In this document: in pieces, positions 3,337-35,867 of the stretch | Layout of the letters: each line of letters begins with the position of its first letter | Position numbering within the stretch: the first letter of the stretch is position 1 | Translations under genes and position numbers: made by a program | DNA from: Akkermansia muciniphila | GTDB taxonomy: Bacteria; Verrucomicrobiota; Verrucomicrobiia; Methylacidiphilales; CAMAQI01 | Reading direction: 5' to 3' | NCBI GenBank assembly: GCA_945883905.1 | Contig: CAMCYL010000006.1 | Location: 1-58,588 of the forward strand | DNA length: 58,588 bases | The notes under the pieces: generated by a model | What the model saw: only the letters and a program-made list of their open reading frames with translations | Told to the model about the DNA's origin: nothing | Database searches by the model: none

Positions 3337-4998
3337 CTATGAATGACCAACAAAAAAACGCACAAAAATTTGAGCCATAATTACTTTAATTAATAATGCC
3401 ATCGGAAAAAGCGTGGCATAAGCCAAAACAATTGGCGCACGATCCATTTTTTGAGAGGCAAAAGCTAAAGCGGCAGGTTGCGTATGAAGTCCACAACAGG
3501 AACCGACCCACATCTCTGGCGAGCGAAAACCAAAACGTCTTAATACAAAACACAAAACGATATGAGCAATCAGTGTAATGAGAATCACGGGCAGAATAAA
3601 ATTAAAGCCATTTACAGATAAAACCTCCAAAAATCCGTTCCCCGCTTGCACCCCTACACATGTCAGAAAAAATAAAATTCCTAACTGCCGGAGGGCCATA
3701 TTATTCGATTGCGGAATCAACCAAATCACCTTTCCCACTCTGCCCCACGCCCCAAGCAATAATCCCATAATAAGACAGCCTCCCGTCGAACCCAATTCAA
3801 ATGAGTCCTCCATTCCCGGAAATGAAATAGGAATAGCCCCCAATCCGATTCCCATTACAATACCTAGTCCAAAGCTGACATATCCACTTTCGGATAGAAT
3901 ATTAATCGAATTTCCAAAAAGTTTTCGAACCTCTTTCTCGGTTTCTTTTAAGGAAATGACTCGGATTCTATCGCCTAATTGGAGAACACTTCCCTCTGTT
4001 ACCTCGAGATCCATATCCCCCCGTCTCTGTCTCGTAATAATAGCTCCATATTTATCAAGTTTAATCTGACTAATCGGAATCCCAACAATTTCGGGATTTG
4101 AAACGTGATATCGATGAACCTCAAAGCCATGCATTTCATCAACTAAGTCAATATCTGCTATTTTTCCCACTGCCTCGGCTGCTTTCGCAATATTTTCCGG
4201 TCGTCCAACGGCCACAAAATAACTTCCTAAATCGAGAGGAAGATTCACATGCGTCATTAACGTCAGAGCACCATCGATGGGCTGATAACGAGTCATTTTA
4301 ATCAAATATTTTTTTTCAATTATTTCAGCAGTCCAATTAGAAAATCCGACTGGGGAATTTAAAATTTGCAACGTTTGTGCAGGATAAATAAAGTTAGGTT
4401 GCTTTCCTGAAATCGACCTTCCTTTTCTCCAACACATTAAAAACTCAAGGAATACAAGCAAGGTCACTACCGATATCGGGTAAGCGATTCCAAATCCTTG
4501 AACTAATGATTTATGTTTTGAGGACTCCCCCAGATCTTTAAGCAGATCCGCCGCTGCCGCCAACGCAGGAGTAGAAGTCAAAGAGCCACAAAAAATTCCA
4601 ACCCAAATGATCGAATCTCCAAAGTAAAAGTGGGCAAAGATCAGACAGACCAGAAAAGAGGCACATAAACCCAAAATCAATGCGGCGATGCACTTTAATC
4701 CCTGTATTTTAAAGTTTTGAAAGAAACCGGGTCCCGACTCAAGCCCAACACAATACACAAATAAGGCTAAACCTAAGGAGGAAAGAAATGGTGGAAACTC
4801 AAAACGAGAATCCCACATCCCAAACCCTAATCCAACAAACAAGACTGAAGCGACCCCCAATCGAAAACGCCCCCCCCAATTGATTTCACCCAAAGAATAT
4901 CCAAGGGCAATAATTAAAAATAATCGTGCTAAAAGGTTGTCGACCAGGAAAACTCGAGCCCATTCGATCAAATCGTAGATTGCCATAAAACTGATCAT
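3337..4998 (-). CDS. AspT/YidE/YbjL-family (aspartate:alanine exchanger-like) transporter with TrkA-C domain
   Basis: GLALFVYCVGLESGPGFF, GSLTSTPALAAA, duplicated TM halves, central RQRRGD...LQLGDRI TrkA-C-like segment. Confidence 0.88.
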   Translation of the reverse strand: MISFMAIYDLIEWARVFLVDNLLARLFLIIALGYSLGEINWGGRFRLGVASVLFVGLGFGMWDSRFEFPPFLSSLGLALFVYCVGLESGPGFFQNFKIQGLKCIAALILGLCASFLVCLIFAHFYFGDSIIWVGIFCGSLTSTPALAAAADLLKDLGESSKHKSLVQGFGIAYPISVVTLLVFLEFLMCWRKGRSISGKQPNFIYPAQTLQILNSPVGFSNWTAEIIEKKYLIKMTRYQPIDGALTLMTHVNLPLDLGSYFVAVGRPENIAKAAEAVGKIADIDLVDEMHGFEVHRYHVSNPEIVGIPISQIKLDKYGAIITRQRRGDMDLEVTEGSVLQLGDRIRVISLKETEKEVRKLFGNSINILSESGYVSFGLGIVMGIGLGAIPISFPGMEDSFELGSTGGCLIMGLLLGAWGRVGKVIWLIPQSNNMALRQLGILFFLTCVGVQAGNGFLEVLSVNGFNFILPVILITLIAHIVLCFVLRRFGFRSPEMWVGSCCGLHTQPAALAFASQKMDRAPIVLAYATLFPMALLIKVIMAQIFVRFFVGHS

Positions 4999-23317: not shown

Positions 23318-24319
23318 CTATCTTTTTCCTAAATCCTCTAAGAAAAATCGGATCGATTTCTTGACTTCCTGAATCATCACATTCACTGAAAACATTCGCT
23401 CGACCCCTTTGCGTAATTGCTTCATCGAAATCGAAGTATAATCACCACGCCAAACCAAAGTCGCCGCCGTTTTTCCCACCTCTAATGGATGAAGTTCATA
23501 ACAAGTAAATGCAACATAGTACCCACTCGTCACATACCACTGTAAATCAACGACCTGCACCCCTCCATTCGATAGCTTATTTTTATAAATCGTCCCCAAC
23601 ACTAAAACCGCCGTTCCATCGACATTTTGCATCTGCCAATAGTGCTCTCCCTCATTCGGCCTCTCCTTTAGTTTTTGAAATAATTCTTGAAACTGCTTCG
23701 AAACCCCCGGTTGCTCTGCTAAAATCGCATCGACCTCCGCCCCCACTTGTACTGATATCTTACAGGCATTATAAGCCGGTAACCCTTTGAGTCCCCCGGT
23801 TTGATAAGCGAGAAATCGACGATTTAAAATTGAGCTCCACAACTGATTCGCCGTCGTCACACTCAAAGTCCCTTGTTTCGCCGCCACTTGGGTCGCCTCT
23901 GCAATCGAAAGATGGAGCGGGCTTTCCTGCGGTCTCGTATCCCCTGTTTTATCAATGAATTTTGAAACCGGTCGTAGGGAGGGAATAAAACTCAATTTCG
24001 AAAAATCGGGGCTCCCCTCCGCTACTATTTTTCCTTGAATATAAATCCCTAAATCAGAATACGGCGTTTGATCCCAAAAAGTAACTCGATCCAACACTTT
24101 CTCTAAAGGATGCGCCACCAAAAAACAGGTCTCTGAAGAGATCCCTCGTTCAAAATCCATCAACCCTCCCTTAGCAGTCAAGATCTCCCCCGGTTTTACT
24201 GCCTTAATCTGAGTAAGTTCAAAGGAAGAAAAAGATTCAATCTCCTCGGTGGCTCCTCCAAAAATGAAGATTCCAAAGGATAAAAAACAGATCCAAACGA
24301 AAACGAATAACTTCACCAC
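23318..24319 (-). CDS. Hypothetical exported protein
   Basis: 333-aa ORF with N-terminal signal-like hydrophobic stretch; fills the gap between flanking genes. Confidence 0.6.
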   Translation of the reverse strand: MVKLFVFVWICFLSFGIFIFGGATEEIESFSSFELTQIKAVKPGEILTAKGGLMDFERGISSETCFLVAHPLEKVLDRVTFWDQTPYSDLGIYIQGKIVAEGSPDFSKLSFIPSLRPVSKFIDKTGDTRPQESPLHLSIAEATQVAAKQGTLSVTTANQLWSSILNRRFLAYQTGGLKGLPAYNACKISVQVGAEVDAILAEQPGVSKQFQELFQKLKERPNEGEHYWQMQNVDGTAVLVLGTIYKNKLSNGGVQVVDLQWYVTSGYYVAFTCYELHPLEVGKTAATLVWRGDYTSISMKQLRKGVERMFSVNVMIQEVKKSIRFFLEDLGKR

Positions 24320-27157: not shown

Positions 27158-28132
27158 TCAGTTAACAAGAACTCCTTGGCAAGAGGAGCCGCATCCCGCA
27201 GTACAACCAAAGCAGTGCTCACTGAATGTAATCGGATGCGTCTCAATTTCAGAGGGATCGATCTCCCAAAGTAAGCGAGGCTTTTCAGACCCCCATTGCA
27301 GTCCAAGTTGCTGATTAAAATCGCAGTCATAAACCTCCCCTTGCCAGCCGATGTTAACCGTATTGCGACACATCAGTCCTGGAATAGAGGCAGGATTAAA
27401 GGCCTCTCGGAGTAAGGTCATATACTCCTCCAAATGACCGTTATTTTTAAGCCACGATTGATAGCGAGAGATCGGCATGTTCGTGATGGCAAAGAGCTGA
27501 TGAAAAACAATATCAAAATGATTTTTAAGTTCTCGTTTATAGTCGAGTTCAAGCTCTTTTTGATCCGGAGGAAGAAAGGGACCACCGGGATTATAAACGA
27601 GATGAAGCGAAAGCGATTCCTCTTTTCCAAATCCTAGCTGATTTAATTTTTGCAACCCCAGAATACTAGAATCAAAAACCCCCTCCCCGCGCTGCGCATT
27701 GACGTTGGCCGCTGAATAACAGGGCATGGAAGCGACAATCTCAAGACGATGCTCTAAAAGAAAAGGCGCAAGCCATTCGTAACCGGGTTCATTTAAAATC
27801 GTCAAATTACAGCGATCGATAATTTTTTTCACCTTTGGCAAAGATCGAAGTTCTCTAATTAAATATTGAAAATCAGGGACCATTTCGGGAGCCCCCCCCG
27901 TTAGATCAACGGTTGCAATCTCGGTTTGACGAAGCCAATCGAGAATCCGATCGATCGTTTCACGAACAATAATCTCCTTGCGCTTCGGTCCTGCATTGAC
28001 ATGACAATGAGAGCAGGTGAGATTACAAAGCTTTCCAACATTAATCTGAAGGATTTCAGTTTTTGTTCGAGGAATCGAAATGAACTGTTCGTTCAGGAGT
28101 TTCTCAAAACTTGAAAGAGTAGAATTTTTCAT
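27158..28132 (-). CDS. arsS: Arsenosugar biosynthesis radical SAM protein (radical SAM + DUF3641)
   Basis: LQINVGKLCNLTCSHCHVNAGP (CX3CX2C), DLTGGAPEM, MCR, YDCDFNQ, HCFGCTAGCGSSC. Confidence 0.92.
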   Translation of the reverse strand: MKNSTLSSFEKLLNEQFISIPRTKTEILQINVGKLCNLTCSHCHVNAGPKRKEIIVRETIDRILDWLRQTEIATVDLTGGAPEMVPDFQYLIRELRSLPKVKKIIDRCNLTILNEPGYEWLAPFLLEHRLEIVASMPCYSAANVNAQRGEGVFDSSILGLQKLNQLGFGKEESLSLHLVYNPGGPFLPPDQKELELDYKRELKNHFDIVFHQLFAITNMPISRYQSWLKNNGHLEEYMTLLREAFNPASIPGLMCRNTVNIGWQGEVYDCDFNQQLGLQWGSEKPRLLWEIDPSEIETHPITFSEHCFGCTAGCGSSCQGVLVN

Positions 28133-28212
28133 AAGAAAATTTTAGGAATAAGATACGAGTCGATGGAGGTTAAAAAATAGAGGATCATTTCTTAAATCTT
28201 TCATTTTAATAT

Positions 28213-28965
28213 TTAAGAAATGCTTTTTTTCGAGCGAAAGAGAAGGCCCGCAATGGTACTTAAAATAATTACCCCCGCCGTCAGACTTCCTTTGAGATTT
28301 CCAGAGATTTTCGAAACTCCCGCAAGACGCGGAAAAGTACGAACAGGAATTTCAATGATTCGCAGTTTTTCTTGAACTGCTCGAACTTGCATTTCAACCG
28401 TCCACCCAAAACCACGATCTTTCATGCCTATTTTTTGATAGGCAGAAACTCGAATCGCCCGTTGAGGTCCTAAGTCAGAAAAGGAGTTTCCCCAAATGAG
28501 TGTCATTAAAAAAGGAGCAAGCCAATTTCCAAACCGTTGAGGGATCGTCATATGAAGCCGATCCTCAGCGTGAGTACGAGCCCCCAGAATAAGATCGTAA
28601 TCAGAGGCGAGTTGGGCAAAGCGCTCATAGGCCTCAAAATCGTCACTGGCATCGGCGTTGCAATAAAGAAGCCATTCAACTCCCTGCGGAAGGTTCAATC
28701 CCCCAAGCCAACAAGCAAGCCCGTAGCCTCGTTGAGGATCCGAAATAACCTCCGCGCCTGCTGCTCGAGCAATTCGGGCAGTGGCATCAGTACTGCCATT
28801 GTCGATGACTCGAAGATAGGAAAACCCACGATCTTGTAGTCGTCTCACGATCGACTCAATGCAAGCCTCCTCGTTATAGGCCGGAATGATCACGACCGTT
28901 CGATCGGCAAACGAGCTAAAACTCGAGGGATCGAGCTCCCGATTTGGATGAGAGGGGAGAATCAT
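28213..28965 (-). CDS. GT2 glycosyltransferase (DPM1/polyprenyl-phosphate type)
   Basis: IIPAYNEE, IDNGSTD, RGYGLAC, DLGPQRAI, FGWTVEMQ, SKISG; DxD reads NAD. Confidence 0.88.
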   Translation of the reverse strand: MILPSHPNRELDPSSFSSFADRTVVIIPAYNEEACIESIVRRLQDRGFSYLRVIDNGSTDATARIARAAGAEVISDPQRGYGLACWLGGLNLPQGVEWLLYCNADASDDFEAYERFAQLASDYDLILGARTHAEDRLHMTIPQRFGNWLAPFLMTLIWGNSFSDLGPQRAIRVSAYQKIGMKDRGFGWTVEMQVRAVQEKLRIIEIPVRTFPRLAGVSKISGNLKGSLTAGVIILSTIAGLLFRSKKSIS

Positions 28966-28969
28966 CTTT

Positions 28970-30115
28970 CTAACAGCAGCTGGTCGTACTACAGCACTCT
29001 GAAGGAGCAGTCGTCGCTTGATAGTTCATCCCTTTCGTTTCTTTCGGATGACGAAGGGAAGTTCTACTACAATCAAACGGGAGGGCCTGCTCCAGAGAAA
29101 TCGGCTCCATCGGTTCGATAAACTCAAAATAGGAGATATAAGGGGACTTACGATAAAGTTGAAAGGTTTTATCGCAAACAGCATAGCGAACGCCTCGCTC
29201 CATCCGATGTCCGTCATCATCTAAGACCTCTTTAAAGGGCCCTCGATAGATAACGGCTTGATTTCGTTCAAAACAGGGACCGATTTTTCCCTTAAAGGCT
29301 TGAATCGTCATCGATCGAAATTCGATTCCAGCAACGGTTTGCCAAGGCTTTTGATCCATTTTAAGGATCTCAATTCCATGAAAACCGGCATCGGCAAAAG
29401 CTTTCAGAAATCCCTCTTCGGTAAGAGCTCCTGAAATACATCCACTCCAAAGCTCAGGATCATTTTGAAGCTCGTCAGGGACAGACTCATCGGCAACGAT
29501 ATCGGAAATCACGGCTCGACCCCCGATTTTAAGGGTTCTGAAAATCTCTTGAAAGAGTTGTGGTTTGGCGTGGGAATCAACGAGATTGAGAACACAGTTA
29601 GAGACGACGACATCGATCGAGTTTGAGGCAACAAGGGGGGATTTGACCCTAAGCTCCTCCGCTAATTCATCGGCTGCAAGAAAAGAGGCGACATTGGAGA
29701 TCGGGCGTTTCTTAAGTTCTTCATCGAGAATTTCGAGATCGAGAGCGAGATCCTGAATTCGTCCTTTACGAAACTCGACATTTGCATATCCGATCGATTT
29801 TGCCACAATCGGAGCATTGCGACGGGCGACCTCCAGCATATCATCGGTCATATCAACCCCAATAACTTTACCTGTTGGCCCGACCACTTGGGAGGCAATA
29901 AAACAGATTTTGCCTGTCCCCGAGCCAAGATCCAGAACCGTTTCCCCCTTTTTAACATATTGAGAGGGATCGCCACAGCCGTAGTCCCTTTCAATGACCT
30001 CCGTAGGTATTATTTTTAAATACTCTTTATTATACTCTACGGGACAGCAAAGTTGAGCTTCTTGAGCTTTAGAGGCAGCGGCATATCTGTTTTTAACAGC
30101 AGTTTCGTTTTTCAT
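28970..30115 (-). CDS. arsM: Arsenite S-adenosylmethionine methyltransferase-like protein
   Basis: LCCP, YGCG, VLDLGSGTG, GVDMTDDML, SNCVLNL, WSGCISGA; Cys-rich tail CCSTTSCC. Confidence 0.85.
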   Translation of the reverse strand: MKNETAVKNRYAAASKAQEAQLCCPVEYNKEYLKIIPTEVIERDYGCGDPSQYVKKGETVLDLGSGTGKICFIASQVVGPTGKVIGVDMTDDMLEVARRNAPIVAKSIGYANVEFRKGRIQDLALDLEILDEELKKRPISNVASFLAADELAEELRVKSPLVASNSIDVVVSNCVLNLVDSHAKPQLFQEIFRTLKIGGRAVISDIVADESVPDELQNDPELWSGCISGALTEEGFLKAFADAGFHGIEILKMDQKPWQTVAGIEFRSMTIQAFKGKIGPCFERNQAVIYRGPFKEVLDDDGHRMERGVRYAVCDKTFQLYRKSPYISYFEFIEPMEPISLEQALPFDCSRTSLRHPKETKGMNYQATTAPSECCSTTSCC

Positions 30116-30261
30116 AAATTTAGTATAAGAGAAGCAAAGCTCACGTTTATTCCCAAGAAAAGTCTATTTTATAATTATTACGATTTAGTGAAGAAGTGAA
30201 AAAAATCGCAATTCAATTTTAATGGGAATAAATAAAAGGATCAAGACTCTTAGTTAAAACC

Positions 30262-31614
30262 ATGAGCAATCGTCATATTGTTGTTTTAGGAAATGGAATC
30301 ACTGGAATCACCGCTGCCCGTACACTACGCAAGCGTTCAAATCATCGAATTACGGTGGTTTCAGGAGAAACCGATCACCATTTCTCTCGAACTGCTCTCA
30401 TGTATATCTTTATGGGAGATATGCGCTACGAGGATACGAAACCGTATCCGGATGATTTTTGGCCGAAAAATCGTATTGAGCTTAAAAGAGGATGGGTTCA
30501 GTCGATCAATACTCAGCAAAAGCAGCTTTTATTCAAAAATCAAGAGTCCCTAAGCTATGACACCCTGATCTTAGCGACCGGTTCGAAACCGAATCGTTTT
30601 GCGTGGCCGGGTGAGGAACTTGAGGGTGTTCAGGGGTTATATTCTTATCAAGATCTAGAAATGATGGAGCGAAACGTAAAAGGGGCGAAACGCGCCGTTT
30701 TAGTCGGAGGAGGTTTAATTGGGGTTGAGGTGGCTGAAATGCTTTTATCGCGAGGAGTTCAGGTCACCTTCTTGGTTCGCGAAAAAACTTTTTGGGGCTC
30801 TGTATTACCTAAAGAGGAGTCGGCGATGATTAATCGTGAGATTCGTGCCCATGGGGTCGATCTTCGATTAGAGACCGGCCTTCAGGAGATCTTGGCAAAT
30901 ACAGCAGGAGGAGTTCGTGCCGTTCGGACTCTTACAGGAGAGGAGATTCCCTGCGAAATGGTCTTTTTGACCGCAGGAGTCAGTCCTCAAATTGAAATGG
31001 TTAAGGATTCGGGAATTGACTGTGATCGTGGCATTTTAGTGGATCGTTTTCTCAGGACCTCGGCCCCTGATGTTTGGGCTGGGGGCGATTGCGCTCAACA
31101 TCGTGAAGTCCCCGAGGGACGACGTCCCGTCGAACAGGTCTGGTACACCGGGAAAATTCAAGGAGAACGAATGGCAGCCAATATCTGTGGTGACCATTCC
31201 GAATATGACCCAGGGATTTGGTTTAATTCAGCCAAGTTCTTTGATATTGAATATCAAACTTACGGATTGGTGATGCCAAAACTCAAGCAGGGAGAGAAAA
31301 CTTTTTATTGGGAACACCCCGAGGGAAATAAATCGATTCGCATCAACTTTGAAGAGTCATCTGGCGCGGTCTTAGGGATGAATGTCTTCGGAATACGCCA
31401 TCGTCATGCCCTCTGGGAAAAATGGATTTTAGAAAAAACCTCTATCCAAGAGGTATTGAGTCATTTAGGAGCCGCGAATTTTGATCCAGAGTTTTATAAG
31501 CAATATGAATCAGAAATCATCCATGCCTTTAATCTTCACTATCCCAATCAATCGGTCGAACTAAAAACAAAAAAGGGACTTTTTTCGAAGTTCCTTGAAG
31601 AGTTTTTTAAATAA
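30262..31614 (+). CDS. NAD(P)/FAD-dependent oxidoreductase (ferredoxin/rubredoxin reductase-like)
   Basis: GNGITG, LILATGS, VGGGLIGVE, TSAPDVWAGGD. Confidence 0.9.
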   Translation: MSNRHIVVLGNGITGITAARTLRKRSNHRITVVSGETDHHFSRTALMYIFMGDMRYEDTKPYPDDFWPKNRIELKRGWVQSINTQQKQLLFKNQESLSYDTLILATGSKPNRFAWPGEELEGVQGLYSYQDLEMMERNVKGAKRAVLVGGGLIGVEVAEMLLSRGVQVTFLVREKTFWGSVLPKEESAMINREIRAHGVDLRLETGLQEILANTAGGVRAVRTLTGEEIPCEMVFLTAGVSPQIEMVKDSGIDCDRGILVDRFLRTSAPDVWAGGDCAQHREVPEGRRPVEQVWYTGKIQGERMAANICGDHSEYDPGIWFNSAKFFDIEYQTYGLVMPKLKQGEKTFYWEHPEGNKSIRINFEESSGAVLGMNVFGIRHRHALWEKWILEKTSIQEVLSHLGAANFDPEFYKQYESEIIHAFNLHYPNQSVELKTKKGLFSKFLEEFFK

Positions 31615-31633
31615 ATTCAAAAAAGAGAAACCC

Positions 31634-33007
31634 ATGAGTGATATCACCGCCAACCTTGCCTATGAAAGTCATTCCATTGCTCATCATGGACCTCGTCTTA
31701 GAATCCGTGAAAAAATAGCTCTCACCGCAATGGCCTTAGGCTCGATGTTTTTAGCCCTTTCACTCATTGCCGTGAATGCGGGAACTTCGGAAATGATCAA
31801 AAGTCTCTGGTTTAATTTCTCCTGGATCCTCGCGATCGGGGGGGGTGGCTACTTTGCTCTTTCAAAGCATCTGATGGATCGTCCAGGAGTTCGAAACCAA
31901 GGAAAAACAACAGATAGTTTAACCTCGCGAGGAGCTTGGGGGTGGATGATCGGAATTGTTTTTACCTCCTTTTATATTTGTCTTTATTGGTTTCCTGGAC
32001 AACTTGAAGGGCTTGTCCGGATCCATGATCCATTCAGTCTATTCATGCGTGGGCGTGCGGCTGATGAATGGTTTGTCTATGGCACGATCTACACGATTTT
32101 AACGCTTTTGATGGGAGCTAAGGCGATTGCGAAATATCGACACAATCGGTATCAAATCATTCGAACCAGCGTAATCATGATCGTCCAGCTGAGTTTTTCT
32201 TATCTTTTTCCAGTGCTTGCTGCAAAATTCTCTCAACCTGAAATCTATTTTAGCTATTTATGGCCTCTCGCTTACGATAAACTTTTTCCCGGATCGATTG
32301 ATCATTTTCTGCATTCAGGAGCGATTGGCTATTTTATCATTGGCTGGTTTGTGATTGGAACCTTTGTTGCAACTCCTGTTTTAACTTATTACTTTGGAAA
32401 GCGTTGGTACTGTTCCTGGGTGTGCGGCTGCGGGGGATTAGCAAATACAATGGGGGATTCCTGGAGACAAGTTTCAGACAAATCTTTAAAATCATGGAAA
32501 ATTGAACGATGGACGATTCATACTGTTTTGGCTTTTATCGTCATCTTAACTTTAATTCTTTGGTTTGAGCCTTATCTACCTGTCCTCTTTAAAGAGATCG
32601 CTTTTCAAATGAGAAAGTTCTATGCCTTTGTAATCGGTGCTGCATTTTCTGGAGTTATTGGAGTGGGATTCTATCCCTTGATGGGAACAAGAGTTTGGTG
32701 TCGTTTTGGATGTCCCATGGCGGCGGTATTAGGGTTATTACAACGATTCAATTCTCGTTTCCGAATTACGACCAATGGGGCACAATGTATCTCCTGCGGA
32801 AATTGCTCAAAATATTGCGAAATGGGAATCGATGTTCGTCACTATGCACAACGGGGACAAAATATTATTCGCGCCTCCTGTGTCGGCTGTGGAATTTGTG
32901 CGACCGTTTGTCCTCGGGGGGTCTTATCGTTAGAAAATGGCCCCCAGGAGAATCGTTACAATCAGGAGCAAGGCTTATCTCTCTTGGGAAAAATGAAATC
33001 AAAATAA
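31634..33007 (+). CDS. Membrane-bound 4Fe-4S protein (NapH/MauN/YccM-like)
   Basis: RWYCSWVCGCG, WCRFGCP, two ferredoxin motifs CISCGNCSKYC and CVGCGICATVCP; multiple TM helices; start likely ATG 31634. Confidence 0.85.
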   Translation: MSDITANLAYESHSIAHHGPRLRIREKIALTAMALGSMFLALSLIAVNAGTSEMIKSLWFNFSWILAIGGGGYFALSKHLMDRPGVRNQGKTTDSLTSRGAWGWMIGIVFTSFYICLYWFPGQLEGLVRIHDPFSLFMRGRAADEWFVYGTIYTILTLLMGAKAIAKYRHNRYQIIRTSVIMIVQLSFSYLFPVLAAKFSQPEIYFSYLWPLAYDKLFPGSIDHFLHSGAIGYFIIGWFVIGTFVATPVLTYYFGKRWYCSWVCGCGGLANTMGDSWRQVSDKSLKSWKIERWTIHTVLAFIVILTLILWFEPYLPVLFKEIAFQMRKFYAFVIGAAFSGVIGVGFYPLMGTRVWCRFGCPMAAVLGLLQRFNSRFRITTNGAQCISCGNCSKYCEMGIDVRHYAQRGQNIIRASCVGCGICATVCPRGVLSLENGPQENRYNQEQGLSLLGKMKSK

Positions 33008-33134
33008 AGAGGCTGACCTTCCCGCCTCAATGAGCTCAGGAAAAGAGAAAAATGCTCGATTCTAAAATCATTTATCTTTTTTTTCTCATTTTGAAATATA
33101 AACTCGTTTTAACCCCTAAAAATTAAAGGACACG

Positions 33135-33902
33135 ATGATAGGACTTATTTCAGGCTCTGGATTTTATGACGTCGAGGGTTTTAAATCTTGCGTTGTGGAG
33201 AATCGCTACGGCTCCGCTCAACTGCTACAGGGGGAGATCGCTGGTAAAAAAATCCTCCTGCTTCCACGACATGGAAAAGATCATCAATATCTTCCCCATC
33301 ATATCAATCATCGAGCAAATCTGTTGGCCCTCAAACAACAGGGAGCAACGATCGTTATTTCAACCTCCGTTTGTGGATTACTTCGCTCCGATTGGTCCTT
33401 GGGAGAGCCGATGCTCGGGAACGATTTAATCTTTGAAGAAAACCGACTTCCTGGAGGAGAGATCTGTACTATTTTTGACCAACCTGGTGAAACGGGTCGT
33501 GGACATCTCATTGCCGGTTCTTTTTTTGACGCGGAGCTCAATGCGGTAATTCGTCAAACTTGGGAAAAAGAGTTTCCGATCATTCGTGAAGGCACTTATG
33601 TCCAAGCCAATGGACCCCGATTTAACTCGAAAGCAGAAATAAAAAAAATACGTTCTGCAGGAGGAGACTTTATCTCCCAGACTTGTGGTCCCGAAGCGAT
33701 CTTAGCAAATGAGTTAGAGCTCCCCTATGCGCTTGTCGCTTTTTCAATTGATTATGCAAATGGAGTTACGCAGGAACCCACCTCAATGGAGGAACTAAAC
33801 TCCAATCTCAAAAAAGGGAGTCATTTGTTTCATCGACTTTTAGAAACATTACCCTCAGAAATTACGAAGATCTCCTTCAAGAACTTCCTCTATCGTTTTT
33901 AG
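33135..33902 (+). CDS. MTAP-family purine nucleoside / methylthioadenosine phosphorylase
   Basis: IGLISGSGFY, LPRHGKDH, INHRANL, NGPRFNSKAE, PEAILANEL, DY. Confidence 0.85.
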   Translation: MIGLISGSGFYDVEGFKSCVVENRYGSAQLLQGEIAGKKILLLPRHGKDHQYLPHHINHRANLLALKQQGATIVISTSVCGLLRSDWSLGEPMLGNDLIFEENRLPGGEICTIFDQPGETGRGHLIAGSFFDAELNAVIRQTWEKEFPIIREGTYVQANGPRFNSKAEIKKIRSAGGDFISQTCGPEAILANELELPYALVAFSIDYANGVTQEPTSMEELNSNLKKGSHLFHRLLETLPSEITKISFKNFLYRF

Positions 33903-33963
33903 GTTGAAAGATCGGTGAACTTCTCAGACACCGCAATCATTGGGGAGGTTTTTTCTTGATAAA

Positions 33964-34587
33964 TTAAGTGATAGATCTCCATTCACTTTGACGACTGCGC
34001 TGAAGTGCGTCGAGGTCATCAATATCTTCAACAATCGCTAAATCATAGACCTTAAGTTTAAGATCGTTTATCGCCAACTTTGTATCGGAAAAAACCGTTG
34101 AACTGCTCCAGGGAATATCTCGAAATAACTCTGGATAGTATTGGTTTAAAATCAAAAGTGCATATCCTCCATCCAAAGTCGGAGCAATGGTGGCGTCAAA
34201 CAATCTCGATTCTTCTCCCGCCTCTTGCAGATATTTTAGGGTAAGATCTGGGCAATCCCCTCCCATCAACGCCACTCGATCTGCTCCTTGGGATAAAGAG
34301 TTCTGAAGCGCTGCCGTTAATCTCACCCCAAGATCTCCTTCAGGCTGTGGAAAAAAAGAGATTGCTCGCGATCTCAAAGGGGAGAGCCATTCCTGCATCT
34401 GCTTTTGGGCTGCGACCGGAGCAAAATAAATGTCGATCTCCCAATCTGCGGGAAGCTGAGAAAGCTGCCATTCAACGAGCCGTATGTAGATCCGTTTCGC
34501 CTCTTCCGCCCCTAATGATGAAGCAAGTCGTGTTTTAACGGTTCCAAGAATAGGTGCCTTTAAAAGGAGCGCGGCACGGATTTTCAT
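33964..34587 (-). CDS. TIGR04282/DUF2064-family arsenosugar-associated transferase (CofC-like fold)
   Basis: KAPILGTVKTRL, QPEGDLGVRL, MGGDCPDL, PTLDGGY, IPWSS, DIDDLD; true start ATG 34587 (ATGA overlap). Confidence 0.88.
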   Translation of the reverse strand: MKIRAALLLKAPILGTVKTRLASSLGAEEAKRIYIRLVEWQLSQLPADWEIDIYFAPVAAQKQMQEWLSPLRSRAISFFPQPEGDLGVRLTAALQNSLSQGADRVALMGGDCPDLTLKYLQEAGEESRLFDATIAPTLDGGYALLILNQYYPELFRDIPWSSSTVFSDTKLAINDLKLKVYDLAIVEDIDDLDALQRSRQSEWRSIT

Positions 34588-35867
34588 GAATTTCTCTCCT
34601 GAGGCAAGGAGCGCATCGATAATAAAAATCCAAGGATCAGAGGAGCCCACATTAAAAATGCAATTTGAGGAGGGAGCTCCCATTGCCCCCCAGGCGATTG
34701 AAAGTAATGATGAATCGAAAAATAAAAAAAACCGCTGATCGAAATCGCAATCGACCCCCGATTTCGCGTCAGAACAGCAAAAGGAATCATCCAAGTAAAA
34801 TACCAAGCATGCATCATGGGAGAGAAGATCCAGAGAAGAAAGAAAATCCATTCGACCGCTCTTTCATAGCTCCGAATTCGAAAGATCGTCACAAGCCAAC
34901 AAAGAGCCAACGGAAATAAAAACCAATCGTTATGCTTCAAACTTTCTTTCCAGAAATAACCGACAAAGGCAGGAATGAGTTCAACACTTCTTACATATTG
35001 AGTGAAATGCTGTGGGAAGATCTGCAAAGTCCATTCGTTCGTCCAAAAACTCAGTAAGGTCCAGGAGCCGATCATCGGCAGCGAAAGGGCGAGGAAAATT
35101 AAAAAAAGTTTTTGATGTTTTTTTGAGCAAAAGACCTGCCACAAAATCCAACCGGCGAGAGGAAGGGCGATCCATTTTAGAGCGATTCCGGCCCCAATCG
35201 CAAAAGAGGCCTGAATTAATTTTTCTTTTCGATAACAGATCCACCCGAAAACCAATGCAAGAATAAAAAGACTGTCGTAATGCCCCCCTCCAGCAAAACA
35301 ATAAATCACCAAGGGGTTCCATGCATAAAGTCGAGACTCTCTTTGTCCGAATTCACGAACGAGTAAAAAAAGAACGCTGAGATCCGCACAGGCAAAAACA
35401 GTTTTAAAGAAGAAGGGAGTTGGTGAAAGAATTGAGAAAAAAGCGAAAAGGAATTCGGCAAAGGGCGGATAGATGGCTGTTACCCCCTTGTACTCCACCG
35501 CTTTCCATACGGTATCACGAAGACCTTCCAAAAGCGCAGCCTCTGGCGGATGTAGATAGGGATTCAATCCGGAAAAAAGAACCCTCCCCTCCCAAATATA
35601 GCGATAGATATCATCTCCGGGAACCTGCCATAAAAGAATCAACCGAGGAAGGATAGCCACTCCCCAAAAAATCGCTGGAGAGAGATTTGAAACTTGAAAA
35701 CTACAAATAAAACCAAAACAAAGTAAAAGGGCTCCTAAAAGAAAAAAGGGGACCGTTCCGAACTCATTTAAACGCCCAAAAGAAAGCATCAACAGAGCCC
35801 CTCCGATAAGAAAGAGAACTGAAAAAAAAGTTGTCACATTATTTTTGGAGGAAAAAATTAATTTCAT
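34584..35867 (-). CDS. GT-C (GT87/mannosyltransferase-like) integral membrane glycosyltransferase
   Basis: DDIYRYIWEG, NPY, IYPP, YAWNPL, GHYD, SPMMHAWY; about 11 TM helices. Confidence 0.82.
   Translation of the reverse strand: MKLIFSSKNNVTTFFSVLFLIGGALLMLSFGRLNEFGTVPFFLLGALLLCFGFICSFQVSNLSPAIFWGVAILPRLILLWQVPGDDIYRYIWEGRVLFSGLNPYLHPPEAALLEGLRDTVWKAVEYKGVTAIYPPFAEFLFAFFSILSPTPFFFKTVFACADLSVLFLLVREFGQRESRLYAWNPLVIYCFAGGGHYDSLFILALVFGWICYRKEKLIQASFAIGAGIALKWIALPLAGWILWQVFCSKKHQKLFLIFLALSLPMIGSWTLLSFWTNEWTLQIFPQHFTQYVRSVELIPAFVGYFWKESLKHNDWFLFPLALCWLVTIFRIRSYERAVEWIFFLLWIFSPMMHAWYFTWMIPFAVLTRNRGSIAISISGFFYFSIHHYFQSPGGQWELPPQIAFLMWAPLILGFLLSMRSLPQERNS

Follow-up and report, generated by a model that had tools for sequence, protein, structure and literature searches.

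A conserved eight-gene arsenic-sugar cluster in a Methylacidiphilum-like bacterium and a possible route to an arsenic-containing ribose conjugate

Much of the arsenic in algae and seafood is present as arsenosugars and arsenolipids. The pathway already named for them is that of cyanobacteria, with ArsM, ArsS and the families TIGR04167, TIGR04282 and TIGR04283. According to PMC13598754, ArsS adenosylates dimethylarsenite to 5'-deoxy-5'-dimethylarsinoyladenosine (DDMAA). No description of the steps from DDMAA to an arsenosugar or arsenolipid, and no publication joining arsenosugars with methylthioadenosine phosphorylase, was found in the literature searched; other papers and supplements may hold more. 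Here, we analysed a cluster of eight genes at positions 27158-35867 of a 58,588-nucleotide stretch of bacterial DNA (contig CAMCYL010000006.1; the whole stretch is called the window), in which genes of the ArsM, ArsS and TIGR04282 types stand together with genes for a nucleoside phosphorylase, two glycosyltransferases and a redox pair.

The window shares ArsS and TIGR04282, both above the family cut-offs, and an ArsM-type methyltransferase with the cyanobacterial pathway. Among 14 control genomes, only Synechococcus elongatus scored above the cut-offs of TIGR04167, TIGR04282 and TIGR04283. The window cluster differs in carrying a family 2 glycosyltransferase (GT2) that resembles polyprenyl-phosphate glycosyltransferases in place of TIGR04283, in having an additional GT-C glycosyltransferase, a flavoprotein with a NapH-like protein and a dedicated phosphorylase, and in its ArsM, which is not of the NF038099 'AsSugarArsM' type (131 against a cut-off of 400).

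The ArsM/ArsS/TIGR04282 core corresponds to the arsenosugar set as already named. For the extension, the nearest analogue in function is the mycobacterial methylthioxylose cap. According to two reports (PMC8780516, PMC12088412), MtxS (Rv0539) makes a decaprenyl-phosphate-linked 5-deoxy-5-methylthio-pentose (MTX), and MtxT (Rv0541c) transfers it to lipoarabinomannan. The likeness lies in pathway logic only: a 5-deoxy-5-substituted pentofuranose is carried on polyprenyl phosphate and handed by a second enzyme to an envelope glycan, the 5-substituent being methylthio in MTX and, as proposed here, dimethylarsinoyl in the window. The MTX sugar is derived from S-adenosylmethionine (SAM), and MtxS and MtxT are GT2 and GT-C enzymes, respectively.

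Single enzymes of the cluster also have known counterparts. ArnC and ArnT of lipid A aminoarabinose modification are the closest solved pair to the models of the window GT2 and GT-C, and GtrB with the Gtr enzymes and DPMS with the Dol-P-Man transferases are further pairs of this kind. Compared with ArnC/ArnT-type pairs, identity is only 12-20%, the sugar is different, a search of the window's genome for a flippase gene gave no match and relatives fuse both enzymes. The phosphorylase has the fold and phosphate-binding residues of MTAP/MtnP of methionine salvage, from which it differs in forming a separate clade with its own substitutions that neighbours TIGR04282 rather than methionine-salvage genes. 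Finally, TIGR04282 proteins match models of CofC/FbiD, the MobA-like 2-phospho-L-lactate guanylyltransferase.

Conserved cluster and proposed route

The ORF list and its translations confirmed the eight open reading frames (ORFs) on alternating strands that an earlier note on this DNA had described (Table 1). The TIGR04282 gene was corrected to 207 aa starting at 34587, instead of a 295-aa ORF. Locus L043, from a metagenome-assembled genome of Methylacidiphilum sp., carried all eight genes in identical order with 77-95% amino-acid identity. Because L043 keeps all eight in order and sub-modules recur across phyla, the arrangement is more than chance. Homologue names and this best related locus placed the host in Verrucomicrobiota, close to Methylacidiphilum. 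Thus, a Methylacidiphilum-like bacterium possesses a conserved eight-gene arsenic-sugar cluster. The cluster is flanked by the housekeeping genes purD, yqeY, ccsA-like and hemA; chance juxtaposition with these neighbours was ruled out, since the flanks are not kept with the cluster in other loci.

Table 1 Coordinates of the cluster features in the window, with the basis of each assignment
Feature	Position	Strand	Basis
arsS, radical SAM enzyme (dimethylarsenite to DDMAA)	27158..28132	-	TIGR04167, PF04055, DUF3641
GT2, DPM1/AglJ/ArnC polyprenyl-phosphate type, proposed polyprenyl-phospho-arsenoribose synthase	28213..28965	-	NCBIfam best matches, fold, fusions
arsM-type SAM-dependent arsenite methyltransferase	28970..30115	-	NF040538, PRK11873, NF038099, all sub-cut-off
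Divergent intergenic region, 146 bp, AT-rich, between arsM operon and flavoprotein operon	30116..30261	.	sequence reading
Pyr_redox_2 flavoprotein, NAD(P)H type, proposed electron donor to NapH-like protein	30262..31614	+	PF07992 1.2e-52
NapH/MauN-like polytopic membrane 4Fe-4S protein, proposed electron-transfer/reductase component	31595..33007	+	TIGR02163, Fer4
MTAP-like nucleoside phosphorylase, ArsS/TIGR04282-linked clade, proposed DDMAA phosphorylase	33135..33902	+	PF01048, TIGR01694
TIGR04282 (DUF2064, CofC-like), proposed arsenoribose-1-phosphate nucleotidyltransferase	33964..34587	-	TIGR04282, PF09837
GT-C membrane glycosyltransferase, PF26314 MptA/B, GT87-like, proposed user of a lipid-linked sugar outside the cytoplasm	34584..35867	-	PF26314, fold

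We tentatively read the cluster, from its protein families and structural models, as one that might well make an arsenic-containing ribose conjugate by way of the phosphorylase, TIGR04282, GT2 and GT-C, in that order and with the assistance of the redox pair; the steps after DDMAA are proposed from gene linkage, fusions and folds. In this route, the MTAP-like phosphorylase would cleave DDMAA with phosphate to adenine and 5-deoxy-5-dimethylarsinoyl-alpha-ribose-1-phosphate. The CofC-like TIGR04282 protein would join this arsenoribose-1-phosphate to a nucleoside monophosphate, giving a nucleoside diphosphate (NDP)-arsenoribose. The ArnC/DPM1-like GT2, in the place of TIGR04283, would move the arsenoribose onto polyprenyl phosphate and, after flipping, the GT-C enzyme would transfer it to a lipid or glycan acceptor at the outer face of the inner membrane. 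Electrons from NAD(P)H would enter by way of the flavoprotein and the NapH-like ferredoxin, either to keep methylarsenicals trivalent or to reduce the ArsS cluster. The C5 of ribose is taken by arsenic in DDMAA, which closes the phosphoribosyl pyrophosphate route to ribofuranosides. The cluster names four candidate enzymes in an order that makes chemical sense: a phosphorylase, a nucleotidyltransferase, a lipid-carrier GT2 and a GT-C.

Family assignment of the eight genes, which the earlier note had asked for, placed ArsS and TIGR04282 above their cut-offs, and the others were assigned by domains, sub-cut-off matches and folds. ArsS scored 433.6 bits against TIGR04167 (cut-off 300) and contained the domains Radical_SAM (PF04055) and DUF3641 (PF12345, 2e-53); its translation showed the motif CNLTCSHC, a radical SAM CX3CX2C motif, and a Cys-rich C-terminus. 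The ArsM-type protein stayed below all curated cut-offs (NF040538, 346.7/500; PRK11873 (NF008823), 205.9/263; NF038099, 131.1/400) and is regarded as ArsM-like from its best family matches and gene context only. Cysteines occur in the contexts CC, GCG, NCV and GCI and may correspond to the catalytic cysteines of characterised ArsM. Orthologues with 68-71% identity adjoin ArsS in L004, L007, L014, L017 and L020. An insert of approximately 30 residues (around 131-162) splits the methyltransferase matches of the window protein into two stretches, and its C-terminal tail is Cys-rich, ending in ECCSTTSCC. Among the ArsM models, the arsinothricin type fits it best, rather than the arsenosugar type. 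An arsinothricin cluster was rejected, because the radical SAM enzyme is ArsS and not ArsL.

As for the three transcription blocks that the earlier note had described, strand and spacing agreed with them. The arsM stop and the GT2 ATG are 4 nt apart and GT2 and arsS 80 nt, the flavoprotein and NapH-like ORFs overlap, and the TIGR04282 start overlaps the GT-C stop in an ATGA behind a GGAGAG motif. A promoter and terminator scan gave counts at the level of shuffled sequence, and promoter-like matches in the 146-bp divergent region were no more than chance. The operon structure therefore rests on spacing.

ArsS neighbourhoods, phosphorylase and TIGR04282

A sample of 401 genomes of the phylum was searched with TIGR04167. 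Nineteen genomes, including that of the window, were above the cut-off; the 18 others are referred to as ArsS-positive and the remaining 382 as ArsS-negative. Up to 20 kb around each of the 18 ArsS genes was searched by tblastn (E<=1e-4) with the window proteins and the proteins of these loci as queries; 4 of the 18 loci are cut by contig ends, and divergent homologues may have escaped. ArsM was present in nine loci, DUF547 in seven, TIGR04282 in five, a NapH-like protein in five (in each case part of a 750-788 aa fusion with a TrxR/YpdA-like flavoprotein domain), an MTAP-like protein in three (each time adjoining TIGR04282), GT-C in three (each time fused to a C-terminal TIGR04283-like GT2 domain, 667-694 aa) and the window's GT2 type in one. 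Seven of the 18 loci contained none of them. The TIGR04282 family was found in the genomes of all 18 ArsS-positive and of 23 of the 382 ArsS-negative members, and in 10/10 genomes with the window's GT-C type. The enrichment of phosphorylase, GT2 and GT-C homologues next to arsS that the earlier note had expected was largely borne out, with the restriction that a GT2-GT-C-TIGR04282 module also occurs without ArsS.

DUF547 proteins, which are absent from the window cluster, recurred around these genes: they were observed in the seven ArsS loci above, in 16 of 73 phosphorylase loci and in 36 of 80 GT-C loci, the latter two sets being described below (examples are L004:7664-8404, L143:9147-9782 and L160:14173-14895). 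A DUF547 family search of the window's genome gave zero matches and was uninformative, as the control genomes also gave zero. A 490-aa processive-type GT2 (CelA/PgaC-like, TIGR03030 122 bits), likewise not in the window, was observed at L004:3728-5203 and in L007, L014, L038, L039, L041, L042 and L141-L146, often between the flavoprotein-NapH fusion and the GT-C fusion.

The phosphorylase matched PF01048 and scored 172 against TIGR01694, below the cut-off of 274.85. Archaeal and human MTAPs were its best relatives in the PDB (E ~1e-28 to 1e-26). A search of the phylum sample with this protein gave a bimodal result: five genomes had matches with 51-56% identity (278-321 bits), one had 44% (220 bits) and the next had 37% (120 bits). 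The clade so delimited was found in 5 of the 18 ArsS-positive genomes and 1 of the 382 ArsS-negative genomes, in agreement with the enrichment claimed for the phosphorylase. In two of these five ArsS-positive genomes, the gene lies on a contig other than that of ArsS, again beside TIGR04282 (L031, L032). The sixth clade genome, G370, holds the copy with 44% identity (L033); ArsS was not found there at E<=1e-40. The cluster in G370 (L033:7854-14822) has a radical SAM enzyme resembling the Rv1681 family (105.9 bits; the ArsS model gave only 59.9) together with the MTAP-like clade member, an ArsC-like reductase, ArsM, TIGR04282, an FNR-like 2Fe-2S reductase, a NapH-like protein and a TIGR04283-like GT2, and may represent a related arsenic pathway started by a different radical SAM enzyme.

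With an alignment of seven clade members, the scan was then widened to bacteria and archaea, each species being represented by one genome. It yielded 73 loci from Verrucomicrobiota, Kiritimatiellota, Acidobacteriota, Aminicenantes, Bacillota, Actinomycetota, Thermodesulfobacteriota, Spirochaetota and several archaea. The flanks contained TIGR04282 in 37 loci, ArsS in 32 (27 at >=40% identity), TIGR04283 in 28 and ArsM in 11. At least one of these four partners was present in 55 of the 73 loci, and in 29 of the 34 loci with >=5 kb on both sides; 13 of the 18 partnerless loci are shortened by contig ends.

In a tree of 98 rows (2 of 100 candidates were dropped by a 200-aa filter), 78 rows formed the phosphorylase clade, and a branch of length 1.23 (SH-aLRT 99) lay between it and 17 canonical MTAPs from the phylum. 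The grouping of the clade members is as expected, because the loci were chosen by the clade's own motifs; the gene neighbours are an independent property. The clade and the canonical MTAPs have a common catalytic scaffold that includes R45, H46, H50, H124, T183 and D206. Clade-wide differences are Q182 (Met in 17/17 canonical sequences), A208 (Asp in 17/17), N209, G210, N164, D97, N103, L105, C111 and T216, and the clade has a conserved YRF C-terminus. Of these positions, Q182, A208, N164, N209 and C111 probably belong to the pocket. By its sequence, the phosphorylase is thus assigned to a distinct clade and not to the housekeeping MTAPs.

The enzyme could instead serve to clean up 5'-deoxyadenosine or methylthioadenosine and have no part in building an arsenic sugar; both compounds are inhibitors of radical SAM enzymes and of methyltransferases. 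The retained phosphate- and ribose-binding scaffold of MTAPs would suit such a role, and 13 of the 18 ArsS-positive genomes do without this clade. It is also the sole match to the MTAP/PNP family in the window's genome, so that it may have a housekeeping role in this organism. Against this, the clade is linked more tightly to TIGR04282 (<=300 bp away in 27 of the 73 loci) than to ArsS (5 of 73), and it occurs with TIGR04282 and TIGR04283 but no ArsS within 10 kb in L082, L091, L094 and L098. Moreover, residues conserved in canonical MTAPs are changed throughout the clade, and in seven ArsS-positive genomes the canonical MTAP-like matches are either on a different contig or at a large distance from ArsS. 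We consider a mere clean-up function improbable. In the ArsS-positive genome G080, a canonical-clade MTAP with 40% identity lies ~3 kb from a TIGR04282 match in a 441-aa frame (L118; contig C35:70000-76500), and a housekeeping-type MTAP may replace the dedicated clade there.

The TIGR04282 protein, to which the proposed route assigns the second step, scored 152.6 against its family (cut-off 134) and 85.8 bits against PF09837. Its match to the CofC model was weak (E 7e-5), while the corresponding domain of L017 gave 2e-14. It also matched PDB 3cgx (E 3.3e-22), a structural genomics entry named putative nucleotide-diphospho-sugar transferase, and the N-terminal motif K..G.VKTRL is common to the two in the alignment. 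No activity of TIGR04282 (DUF2064) was reported in the literature found, and the NCBI family name is glycosyltransferase. A fusion TIGR04282::TIGR04283 exists in L017. Some loci combine TIGR04282 with the phosphorylase and others combine it with the GT2-GT-C pair; it thus appears as a hub, as a sugar-1-phosphate nucleotidyltransferase standing between them would.

The GT2 and GT-C pair

The three best NCBIfam matches of the GT2 (250 aa) were AglJ (88.2, cut-off 325), Dol-P-hexose transferase (44.6, cut-off 375) and PpgS (37.3, cut-off 370), all of them polyprenyl-phosphate glycosyltransferases. The GT2 is not a member of TIGR04283 (34.3, cut-off 182), and the window's genome held no TIGR04283 member, its best score being 59.8. 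The structural model (pLDDT 83.5) has a C-terminal helix at 224-249. A Foldseek search with this model returned ArnC at ranks 1-6 (TM 0.61-0.71), the soluble glucosyl-3-phosphoglycerate synthases (GpgS) closely behind and DPMS and GtrB lower, while a sequence search of the PDB gave only weak N-terminal matches to GpgS. The predicted fold and the C-terminal helix fit the DPM1/GtrB/ArnC polyprenyl-phosphate type most closely.

The GT-C enzyme is a polytopic protein of 427 aa. PF26314 (MptA/B) is recorded in the protein database for it and for most of its homologues, and its protein-atlas neighbours are PF26314/GT87; a local Pfam scan gave no match at E<=0.01, and TIGR03459 gave only 23.7 bits. 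The best Foldseek matches of its model (pLDDT 94.1), at a probability of 1.00 and a TM of at most 0.62, were 9wno (GPI mannosyltransferase I, Dol-P-Man), 9dm5 (PimE), 5f15 (ArnT) and 6snh (ALG6), which are GT-C enzymes with polyprenyl- or dolichyl-phosphate sugars as donors. D86 in the first outer loop (PGDDIYRY) was invariant in 52 sequences; from other GT-C enzymes, we take it to be the catalytic acidic residue. Homologues at E<=1e-30 were present in 6 of the 18 ArsS-positive and 4 of the 382 ArsS-negative genomes, as the claimed association with arsS predicts.

Most GT-C relatives in the phylum sample lie in frames of ~690 aa, in which two kinds of fusion were recognised: the window's GT2 type at the N-terminus of GT-C (L034, L035, L036), or a TIGR04283-like domain at its C-terminus (L004, L007, L014, L038-L042). 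In L035 (8711-11280, genome G180) and L036 (8751-11338, genome G213), the fused GT2::GT-C (667 aa in L035) is followed by TIGR04282, and neither ArsS nor the phosphorylase clade was found in these genomes; a gene for a DegP-type protease and one for a heavy-metal sensor kinase precede the fusion in L035. A metagenome scan with a GT-C alignment gave 380 loci, of which the best 80 were analysed; the counts that follow refer to these 80. Of the 64 loci with enough sequence upstream of GT-C, 42 had the GT2 type there within 300 bp; downstream, TIGR04282 came within 300 bp in 25 of 61. A single open frame was formed by 33 of 44 adjacent same-strand GT2/GT-C pairs. As in the window, GT-C was a separate gene with TIGR04282 after it in 14 of the 19 closest GT-C relatives (>=44% identity). 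DUF547 was present in 36 loci, ArsM in eight, ArsS in five and the phosphorylase in none. Five loci (L159, L160, L162, L163, L201) have GT2, GT-C, TIGR04282, ArsS and ArsM in one cluster, and L160 and L162 additionally carry DUF547 and the flavoprotein-NapH fusion.

The joining of a cytoplasmic GT2 to GT-C, observed in 33 of 44 pairs, has its simplest reading as a donor-maker combined with a donor-user. The earlier note had regarded the two enzymes as a lipid-carrier pair, and the fusion in relatives supports that view. Prediction of a complex between the window GT-C and GT2 gave a score of 0.00 against a mark of 0.32, which weighs neither for nor against binding.

The early steps to NDP-arsenoribose might be the same and the GT2 act as is presumed for TIGR04283, transferring the sugar on the cytoplasmic side directly to a phospholipid or an acceptor of the glycerol type. 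The products would be ordinary beta-arsenosugars or arsenosugar phospholipids, and GT-C would do another job, such as adding a further sugar or handling the product. That a TIGR04283-like domain is fused to GT-C (L004 and L014, 132-164 bits; also in the other loci named above) fits this explanation, as does the nearness of the GT2 model to an enzyme with a three-carbon phospho-acid acceptor. One inverting transfer from an alpha-NDP-sugar, as by TIGR04283, would explain the beta linkage of known arsenosugars. In addition, arsenosugar phospholipids are made by a cyanobacterium and algae, according to PMC11009773. The family matches of the GT2, the six leading ArnC ranks and the GT2::GT-C fusions, read as above, argue against direct transfer, which we judge unlikely.

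Another explanation is that GT2, GT-C and TIGR04282 (with or without DUF547) form a general envelope module for a non-arsenic sugar, e.g., 5-deoxyribose, methylthioribose from SAM by-products or a common hexose, and only share TIGR04282 or genomic space with ArsM and ArsS. In the phylum sample, 4 of the 10 GT-C-positive genomes were without ArsS at E<=1e-40 (all ten have TIGR04282, a family that 23 ArsS-negative genomes also possess), and in L035 and L036 the module stands after protease and heavy-metal sensor kinase genes with no ars genes near. In contrast, the GT-C type is enriched in ArsS-positive genomes, more distant fused forms adjoin ArsS in L007 and L014, and the window GT2 is translationally packed between arsM and arsS. 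Six metagenome loci among the 80 also cluster the module with ArsM, and five of them with ArsS. Such a general module is, like direct transfer, an unlikely alternative.

Several results weigh against the proposed route from DDMAA through a lipid carrier to the envelope. All NCBIfam scores of the GT2 are under the cut-offs, and its fold is almost as near to the soluble GpgS enzymes as to ArnC. The GT2-GT-C-TIGR04282 module occurs in four genomes where ArsS was not found (G048, G180, G213, G290), and ArsS was present in only 4 of the 21 metagenome GT-C loci with full flanks, the other 17 having none within 10 kb. The phosphorylase, besides being the only one of its family in the genome, belongs to a clade that was found neither in 13 of the 18 ArsS-positive genomes nor in any of the 80 GT-C loci; this step is therefore not obligatory or is replaced elsewhere. 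A search for a GtrA-type flippase (PF04138) gave no match in the window's genome, which is 96% complete, so that its absence is unproven. Stereochemistry is a further point: phosphorolysis would give an alpha-1-phosphate, from which an inverting GT2 would make a lipid donor with a beta linkage. If GT-C inverts as well, an alpha-glycoside follows, and the two inverting transfers would lead to an alpha-riboside, unlike the beta-ribosides of known arsenosugars. The earlier note had claimed a complete route from arsenite over lipid-linked arsenoribose to envelope glycosylation. Conservation, linkage, fusions and folds speak for such a route and the ArsS-free modules and the lack of a flippase match against it, so that the claim is supported in part; 'complete' was overstated, because the flippase search gave no match.

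Given that the window's genome is without a TIGR04283 member, and considering the inversions above, the product of the proposed route is expected to differ from classical arsenosugars. It is possible, if rather doubtful, that arsenoribose is linked to polyprenyl phosphate, that GT-C adds an alpha-linked dimethylarsinoyl-ribose to a lipid or glycan, and that TIGR04282 is the nucleotidyltransferase hub of a widespread, hitherto undescribed pathway for SAM-derived 5'-substituted adenosines. As part of the same doubtful reading, that pathway would yield activated 5-deoxy-5-X-riboses for envelope glycosylation, with the mycobacterial MTX cap as one relative; X would be arsenic or, in genomes without ArsS, perhaps methylthio, seleno or deoxy. 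Should the lipid-carrier branch exist, arsenic would be incorporated into the envelope of some bacteria, and arsenic cycling and 'detoxification' would have to be seen differently. The large DUF2064/TIGR04282 family would gain a function, the polyprenyl-phosphate-linked arsenoribose would be the first metalloid-containing lipid-linked sugar donor, and the alpha-linked product of GT-C would be a new class of arsenic natural product.

Redox pair and neighbouring genes

The NapH-like protein scored 60.5 bits against TIGR02163, below the cut-off, and matched Fer4 families. Its homologues adjoin ArsS in the five phylum loci mentioned above and are also present in L160 and L162. Flavoprotein homologues with 86% (L043) and 68% (L143) identity are each followed directly by a NapH-like gene. 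Three unrelated types of NAD(P)H flavoprotein accompany the NapH-like protein: Pyr_redox_2 (window, L043, L143), the fused TrxR/YpdA-like type (Opitutia-type loci, e.g., L004) and the FNR-like 2Fe-2S reductase (L033). This non-orthologous replacement suggests that the constant function is the delivery of NAD(P)H electrons to the membrane iron-sulfur protein. As the target, we favour methylarsenicals, which would be kept trivalent for ArsM and ArsS, or the ArsS cluster, which would be primed; this is the least certain part of the proposal.

Upstream of the cluster flank, a 333-aa ORF (23318-24319, minus strand) had no Pfam match at E<=0.001. In L043, a gene for a 373-aa phosphate transporter of the PiT/PHO4 family (3446-4567, minus strand; PF01384 2.7e-62) lies between GT2 and arsS, where the window cluster has only 80 bp, and a search with its product as the query gave no match in the window's genome. 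This phosphate/arsenate carrier may feed the arsenic-sugar pathway in L043.

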